A stretch of 64,000 nucleotides of DNA from sequence record PP526941.1; one strand, given 5' to 3'. Of the stretch, positions 39,433-39,891 are shown one piece after another. Both the position numbers and the translations under genes were made by a program. Origin of the DNA: Escherichia phage vB_EcoM_ECO78. Under the pieces are notes generated by a model. That model was given only the letters and a program-made list of their open reading frames with translations, searched no databases and was not told the origin of the DNA. How positions within the stretch are numbered: position 1 is the first letter of the stretch; every line of letters begins with the position of its first letter.

Positions 39433-39891
39433 TTATTTTAAATCATCTGCCCAATCAAGTTTAAGAGGCTCTTTGTATTCACGATCTAATACGACCGGAA
39501 TTTGTACATCACCGCTAAATGATAAGGGCCCAACATTATAAGACAATGTTATATGCGGTGTGTAATCATCAAAATCATGTGTAGCACCTAGTGCCCGCGC
39601 ATACATGTGTCGACAGCGCAGATATTCAGAATCTAACACAAGTACAAGAGTTGATCCATCTTGTGTTTTCCATACTTCTAAATGTCCAGAAGAAGCTACT
39701 TCAAAACTTCCACTCGATGGAACATATGGAACATTTACTCTTGAATAACATATAGTTGAATGAATTTTTTCTCTAGGAACTGGATTAGGAACACGTAAAG
39801 AGCGCTGGAGTTCTTCCAGCGCGTCAAGTGTTAATTCTGAAAACTTAGCTGCTACATAAAGACCCGTTGAAAAGTCTTTAAATTCCATCAT
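39433..39891 (-). CDS. 57B: Anti-CBASS protein Acb1 (gene 57B; 2H phosphoesterase)
   Basis: 152 aa; two H-x-T/S motifs (HSTICY and HITLSY); ATGA overlap with 57A stop; matches T4 57B by recall. Confidence 0.8.

Follow-up and report, generated by a model that had tools for sequence, protein, structure and literature searches.

The window analysed here, a stretch of 64,000 nucleotides of Escherichia phage vB_EcoM_ECO78 (PP526941.1), contains on its minus strand a reading frame in the position occupied by gene 57B (acb1) in phage T4. The gene order was the same as in T4, with gene 1, 57A, 57B, and ipI following one another and genes 3, 2, and 4 lying beyond gene 1. The following features were assigned to the locus:

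40879..40907, minus strand: candidate middle promoter (MotA type) upstream of gene 1, TAATGCTTCA, 12 nt, TATAAT (regex scan, consensus match only)
40486..40493, minus strand: candidate T4 late-promoter consensus TATAAATA within gene 1, upstream of 57A-57B (regex scan, consensus match only)
40130..40855, minus strand: gene 1 (dNMP kinase), start set from T4 (241 aa); Pfam PF21448 DNMK, E=8e-107; 97.9% identity over 241 aa to T4 gp1
39888..40130, minus strand: gene 57A (tail-fibre chaperone), directly upstream of acb1 and co-directional; Pfam PF17594 GP57, E=3.2e-50; 97.5% aa identity to T4 gp57A
39888..39891, minus strand: ATGA overlap of the 57A stop (TGA) with the 57B start (ATG), from the ORF coordinates; sequence AGATGAAGAATGATGGAATT; arranged alike in T4
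39433..39891, minus strand: acb1 (gene 57B) CDS, ATG start, 152 codons and a TAA stop (ORF listing)
39745..39762, minus strand: first catalytic HxT motif, H44-S-T46 in HSTICY, residues 44-49 (re-translation; H44 and T46 align to H and T in the chain of 7T26)
39538..39555, minus strand: second catalytic HxT motif, H113-I-T115 in HITLSY, residues 113-118 (re-translation; aligns to PHITLSYN of 7T26)
39436..39459, minus strand: C-terminal residues 145-152 (LDWADDLK), including W147, putative lid over the bound ligand (sequence correspondence only)
39073..39360, minus strand: ipI (internal protein I, GmrS/GmrD inhibitor), directly downstream of acb1; Pfam PF11634 IPI_T4, E=7.1e-54; 98.9% identity to T4 IpI

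A first-pass annotation had described a 152-aa gene coupled to 57A and carrying two HxT/S motifs, HSTICY and HITLSY. The ORF listing returned the same coordinates, length, and minus strand, with the stop codon at 39433-39435 (minus strand), and both motifs were recovered by re-translation and by a manual check against the raw sequence, neither of them being lost. The frame begins with two ATG codons in tandem (MM...) and every motif is retained from either start; the older record X03016 gives 151 aa, counted from the second ATG of 57B, and the published H44/H113 numbering agrees with the 152-aa form. The described coupling corresponds to the 4-base ATGA overlap between the 57A stop and the 57B start. 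The gene 1 stop and the 57A start also have one base in common, and these overlaps of one and four bases fit co-transcription and translational coupling. The translational coupling of 57A and 57B via the ATGA overlap is real.

The candidate MotA-type site is consistent, as a consensus match, with the PhageExpressionAtlas preprint, in which T4 57B and vs.4 were reported as being expressed mainly in the middle/late period. Cyclic-nucleotide cleavage activity was detected from ~15 min of T4 infection (Hobbs et al. 2022, PMC9117128), and the late-promoter consensus within gene 1 may be tied to this onset. We infer both the expression of acb1 in the ECO78 phage and the promoters used for it: translation of acb1 would be coupled to that of 57A, and genes 1, 57A, and acb1 are probably transcribed together from middle and late promoters. 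Across 38700..41700, a sigma-70 promoter scan gave 12 sites for 12.0 expected, with no enrichment over chance, and an intrinsic-terminator scan gave one site for 1.2 expected, which is no better than chance. Two TG-extended −10 sites, at 39419..39391 and 39053..39025, were excluded as acb1 promoters, both being located downstream of acb1 and upstream of ipI and trna.4, respectively. In these same gaps (acb1-ipI and ipI-trna.4), near-identical copies of TTTCACAAAGTTGTTTACAT...TG.TACTAT were observed at 39391..39432 and 39025..39066 (minus strand), and both were scored in the promoter scan as TTTACA, 17 nt, TACTAT with a TG extension. The TTTCACAAAGTTGTTTACAT sequence also occurs in T4, and the two copies resemble T4 early promoters.

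The first-pass annotation had also identified the gene as an intact Acb1 (57B), similar to that of T4, and this identification was borne out in full. The window protein was identical to T4 gp57B (NP_049750.1), the founding and experimentally characterised member of the family, over 152 of 152 aa in a protein comparison, and the two coding sequences differed by six nucleotides (codons 23, 28, 45, 80, 86, and 145), all six of them synonymous and none non-synonymous. Strand, neighbours (1, 57A, and ipI), and the ATGA overlap with 57A are also shared with T4, although the surrounding genome is different and that of a mosaic Tequatrovirus. In Pfam, the single significant family was PF23474, "Anti-CBASS protein Acb1" (202.7 bits, E=2.7e-60, for a gathering score of 27 bits), the match spanning profile positions 1-144 of 144 and protein residues 9-150. 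Given this E-value and the 100% protein identity to T4 gp57B, the match to Acb1 is far beyond chance. All nine Acb1 residues named in the literature were found at the same positions (list from PMC9117128), namely the catalytic HxT/HxT tetrad (H44, T46, H113, and T115 in T4 numbering), the base-stacking residues Y12, W74, F107, and W147 of the ligand pocket, and the adenine-contacting E141, and the C-terminal lid segment 145-152 was present as well. The T-even context, with 57A upstream and ipI downstream, is likewise that of acb1.

A search of PDB sequences retrieved the Acb1 entries 7T26/7T27 over residues 9-149 (E=4.2e-62), with 96 of 141 residues identical (68%), and a more distant Acb1 structure, 9Q2G (E=0.004). 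We take 7T26 to be the Acb1 of Erwinia phage FBB1; the phage is named in PMC9117128, and the assignment of the entry to it is our own. The HxT/HxT tetrad, Y12, E141, and W147 are conserved between the two proteins, whereas the 7T26 chain has F opposite W74 and Y opposite F107, both positions remaining aromatic, and a one-residue indel follows residue 80. The 68% identity and the E-value of 4.2e-62 to 7T26 strongly imply a 2H phosphoesterase fold for the window protein. An AlphaFold2 model computed from the single sequence only was too poor to use (mean pLDDT 37.8, pTM 0.31).

The function attributed to 57B comes from Hobbs et al. 2022 (PMC9117128), who purified a 3'3'-cGAMP-cleaving activity from T4 lysate by activity-guided fractionation and traced it to gene 57B, named Acb1. 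In that study, cGG and the 2'-5' bond in 3'2'-cGAMP were resistant to Acb1. Crystal structures of the FBB1 orthologue showed that the protein adopts a 2H phosphoesterase fold, has a U-shaped pocket, and carries a lid formed by C-terminal residues 145-152; the bases are stacked by Y12, W74, F107, and W147, the adenine is contacted by E141, and the tetrad H44, T46, H113, and T115 lies beneath the scissile phosphate (PMC9117128). The H44A/H113A mutant of T4 Acb1 was catalytically inactive, and T4 lacking acb1 lost cGAMP hydrolysis, grew normally without CBASS, and was impaired in replication >300-fold on CBASS hosts (PMC9117128). Escape of T4 from CBASS requires acb1. A HIDEN-SEQ transposon screen found 57B/acb1 to be non-essential on K-12 and depleted on a CBASS-expressing host (bioRxiv 10.1101/2025.11.20.689424). 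The statement of the first-pass annotation that T4 57B encodes Acb1 and that Acb1 degrades cyclic oligonucleotide signals is supported by this work. Since the amino acid sequences are identical, the published T4 experiments apply directly to the window protein, for which the enzymology and the CBASS phenotype shown in the literature are predicted from the sequence match.

The mechanism would then proceed as follows. Acb1 would bind the cyclic di- and trinucleotides produced by host CBASS CD-NTases (3'3'-cGAMP, cUA, cAAA, cAAG, and others with at least one AMP) and would strain the ligand into an attack of the 2'-OH on the 3'-5' phosphodiester 3' of adenosine. Hydrolysis would follow by metal-independent acid-base catalysis on H44, T46, H113, and T115, via a 2',3'-cyclic phosphate intermediate, and the linear product would be unable to activate CBASS effectors, so that abortive infection would be blocked. 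The same strategy, removal of a nucleotide second messenger while sensor and effector are left untouched, is used by Acb2 (T4 vs.4), Apyc1, the poxins, and the AcrIII-1/Crn ring nucleases. Unlike Acb1, however, Acb2 is a sponge that sequesters the signals without cleavage, Apyc1 is an MBL-fold protein whose substrates are cyclic mononucleotides, and the poxins and ring nucleases have structures unrelated to that of Acb1 (the last two points from PMC9117128).

With the sequence identity, motifs, synteny, and family membership observed here in the window gene itself, we put at about 97% the probability that the ORF at 39433..39891 is the acb1 of a T4-like Tequatrovirus and encodes an anti-CBASS 2H-phosphoesterase acting by the proposed mechanism. 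The window gene is an ordinary, intact copy of a characterised anti-defence gene, already known, and it brings no new biology. A pseudogene or decaying acb1 was rejected, the frame being unbroken, the catalytic and ligand-binding residues complete, and non-synonymous changes absent.

Three other readings were weighed. Acb1 might have a second, CBASS-independent role, either through a tie to the coupled gp57A or by acting on RNA/tRNA ends, an idea prompted by its 2H fold and by the tRNA genes close by. If true, this would account for a protein that is invariant with respect to T4 (no non-synonymous and six synonymous changes) amid diverging flanking genes. Both the normal growth of T4 lacking acb1 on hosts without CBASS and the non-essentiality of the gene in HIDEN-SEQ, taken from the published data, speak against such a role, which we consider improbable, even if it fares best among the three.

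Still less probable is the reading in which the 57B protein would be an RNA ligase or RNA-repair 2H enzyme, such as a LigT-like 2'-5' RNA ligase or 2',3'-cyclic phosphodiesterase, working on RNA or tRNA ends and not on immune signals. The protein matches PHROG 755, labelled 'RNA ligase' (E=5.3e-68), the RefSeq name of T4 57B is also 'RNA ligase', one record calls it 'RNA 2',3'-cyclic phosphodiesterase', and the phage tRNA cluster is ~2 kb away from acb1. Moreover, a weak Pfam match to 2_5_RNA_ligase2 (PF13563) was obtained (E=0.11, 13 bits). The proteins of this LigT / 2'-5' RNA ligase superfamily, which are cellular 2H phosphoesterases, likewise carry two HxT/S motifs and share with Acb1, according to the literature, the 2H fold and a metal-independent chemistry via a 2',3'-cyclic phosphate, but their substrates are RNA ends and not cyclic oligonucleotide immune signals. 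The PF13563 match, however, covered residues 81-123 only and was well under the 27-bit cut-off, compared with 202.7 bits for the Acb1 family, so that membership in the LigT-like family was not retained, and a search of NCBIfam profiles with the window protein gave zero matches. The 'RNA ligase' label derives from the fold of the family and was never tested, whereas cyclic-oligonucleotide cleavage and a CBASS-specific phenotype were directly shown for the identical T4 protein, which in addition is dispensable for normal growth without CBASS. On the sub-threshold Pfam score and this direct biochemistry, the RNA-ligase/LigT reading was rejected.

As for nomenclature, RefSeq (T4 NC_000866.4, locus L001, 3435..3893) and PHROG 755 keep 'RNA ligase' for 57B/acb1, as do several GenBank records, and a dedicated Acb1 family already exists in Pfam. 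The outdated name will propagate to new T4-like genome annotations.

The last reading, in which an intact acb1 would be mainly a liability here and heading for loss because degradation of cA3 triggers guards such as type II Panoptes, is scarcely credible. That carrying the gene has a cost was shown in recent work. In type II Panoptes, a CARF-TM effector is kept inactive by cA3; Tevenvirinae with an intact acb1 (Bas35-37) are restricted by it, whereas Bas43, whose acb1 contains a nonsense mutation, evades it, and escapers obtained by selection carried inactivating acb1 mutations (PMC13577387). The primers used in that study for the acb1 region can be placed in the window at 38946..38967 (one mismatch) and 40219..40242 (no mismatch), so that the window locus is the same as, and directly comparable to, the one studied there. 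Nevertheless, such a liability follows from the very same enzyme activity and does not amount to an alternative function. With regard to decay, acb1 shows, relative to T4, six synonymous and no non-synonymous changes, while its neighbours range from 84.6% (trna.3) to 100% (trna.4) aa identity, a substitution pattern that indicates purifying selection. Deletion of acb1 from T4 left the defence by type I Panoptes unaffected, and plasmid over-expression of acb1 lowered colony formation with type I Panoptes (PMC12657218). Given the Panoptes cost of an intact acb1, the intactness of the gene affects the phage, and the same Acb1 activity that is retained under the anti-CBASS reading predicts sensitivity to cA3-depletion guards, for example type II Panoptes.

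Besides acb1, the window contains a homologue of vs.4/Acb2, the cyclic-oligonucleotide sponge, at 26654..26917 (minus strand), with 94.3% aa identity to T4 vs.4 and a match to the Pfam family PF24729 (Acb2/Tad1 hairpin, E=9.4e-20). Both known T4 anti-CBASS genes, the Acb1 nuclease and the Acb2/vs.4 sponge homologue, are therefore present and intact in the window, and the phage is predicted to resist many CBASS systems with AMP-containing signals. The status of acb1 is useful for host-range prediction and for the choice of therapeutic phages.

The gene is common and well sampled. A megablast of the region 39000..40300 against 50,697 phage records showed T4 and its nearest relatives to be 98.3-98.4% identical across the whole query. 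At the nucleotide level, acb1 was carried by 554 phage records at a coverage of at least 80%, and by tblastn a homologue was found in 1,485 phage records, 445 of these at a protein identity of at least 99%. The hosts of the phages with an acb1 homologue are mainly Escherichia, Klebsiella, Shigella, Acinetobacter, Vibrio, Enterobacter, and Aeromonas.

As noted in T4, acb1 and ipI form a small anti-defence cluster, and their adjacency is treated in PMC9117128. No tblastn match to T4 ipII or ipIII was obtained in the window. Four ORFs on the minus strand (28519..28992, 29477..29773, 34116..34679, and 34798..35271) have N-termini resembling the capsid-targeting sequence of internal proteins. Two of the four matched PHROGs for an internal virion/head protein (phrog_3155 and phrog_3499), the first of these two also matching Pfam DUF7412, and the other two matched phrog_2280 (function unannotated). 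Such a set is reminiscent of the polymorphism of internal proteins among T-even phages, and its members are candidate anti-defence proteins that would be injected as IpI is.

The window as a whole is that of a mosaic T4-like Tequatrovirus and not T4 itself, and the best database matches over 20 kb were 94.7-96.4% identical. The tRNA cluster (36026..37502, minus strand) comprises 10 genes (Arg, His, Asn, Tyr, Met, Ser, Pro, Gly, Leu, and Gln) and differs from the T4 set of eight (Arg, Ile, Thr, Ser, Pro, Gly, Leu, and Gln). Within the cluster, at the position of the T4 homing endonuclease gene segB, to which no match was found in the window, lies a 161-aa ORF (36557..37042, minus strand) that matched only phrog_16521 (function unannotated) and no Pfam family; it may represent another kind of mobile or homing element. 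A 174-aa ORF (37589..38113, minus strand) was found between tRNA-Gln and trna.2, where T4 has no gene; it matched phrog_2290 (function unannotated, E=7.2e-69) and no Pfam family. Finally, while most genes were 90-100% identical to their T4 counterparts, tk.4 (macro-domain/A1pp phosphatase) was just 58% and denV just 78% identical (24498..24962 and 29008..29418, respectively, both on the minus strand), and these divergent genes are local mosaic replacements.
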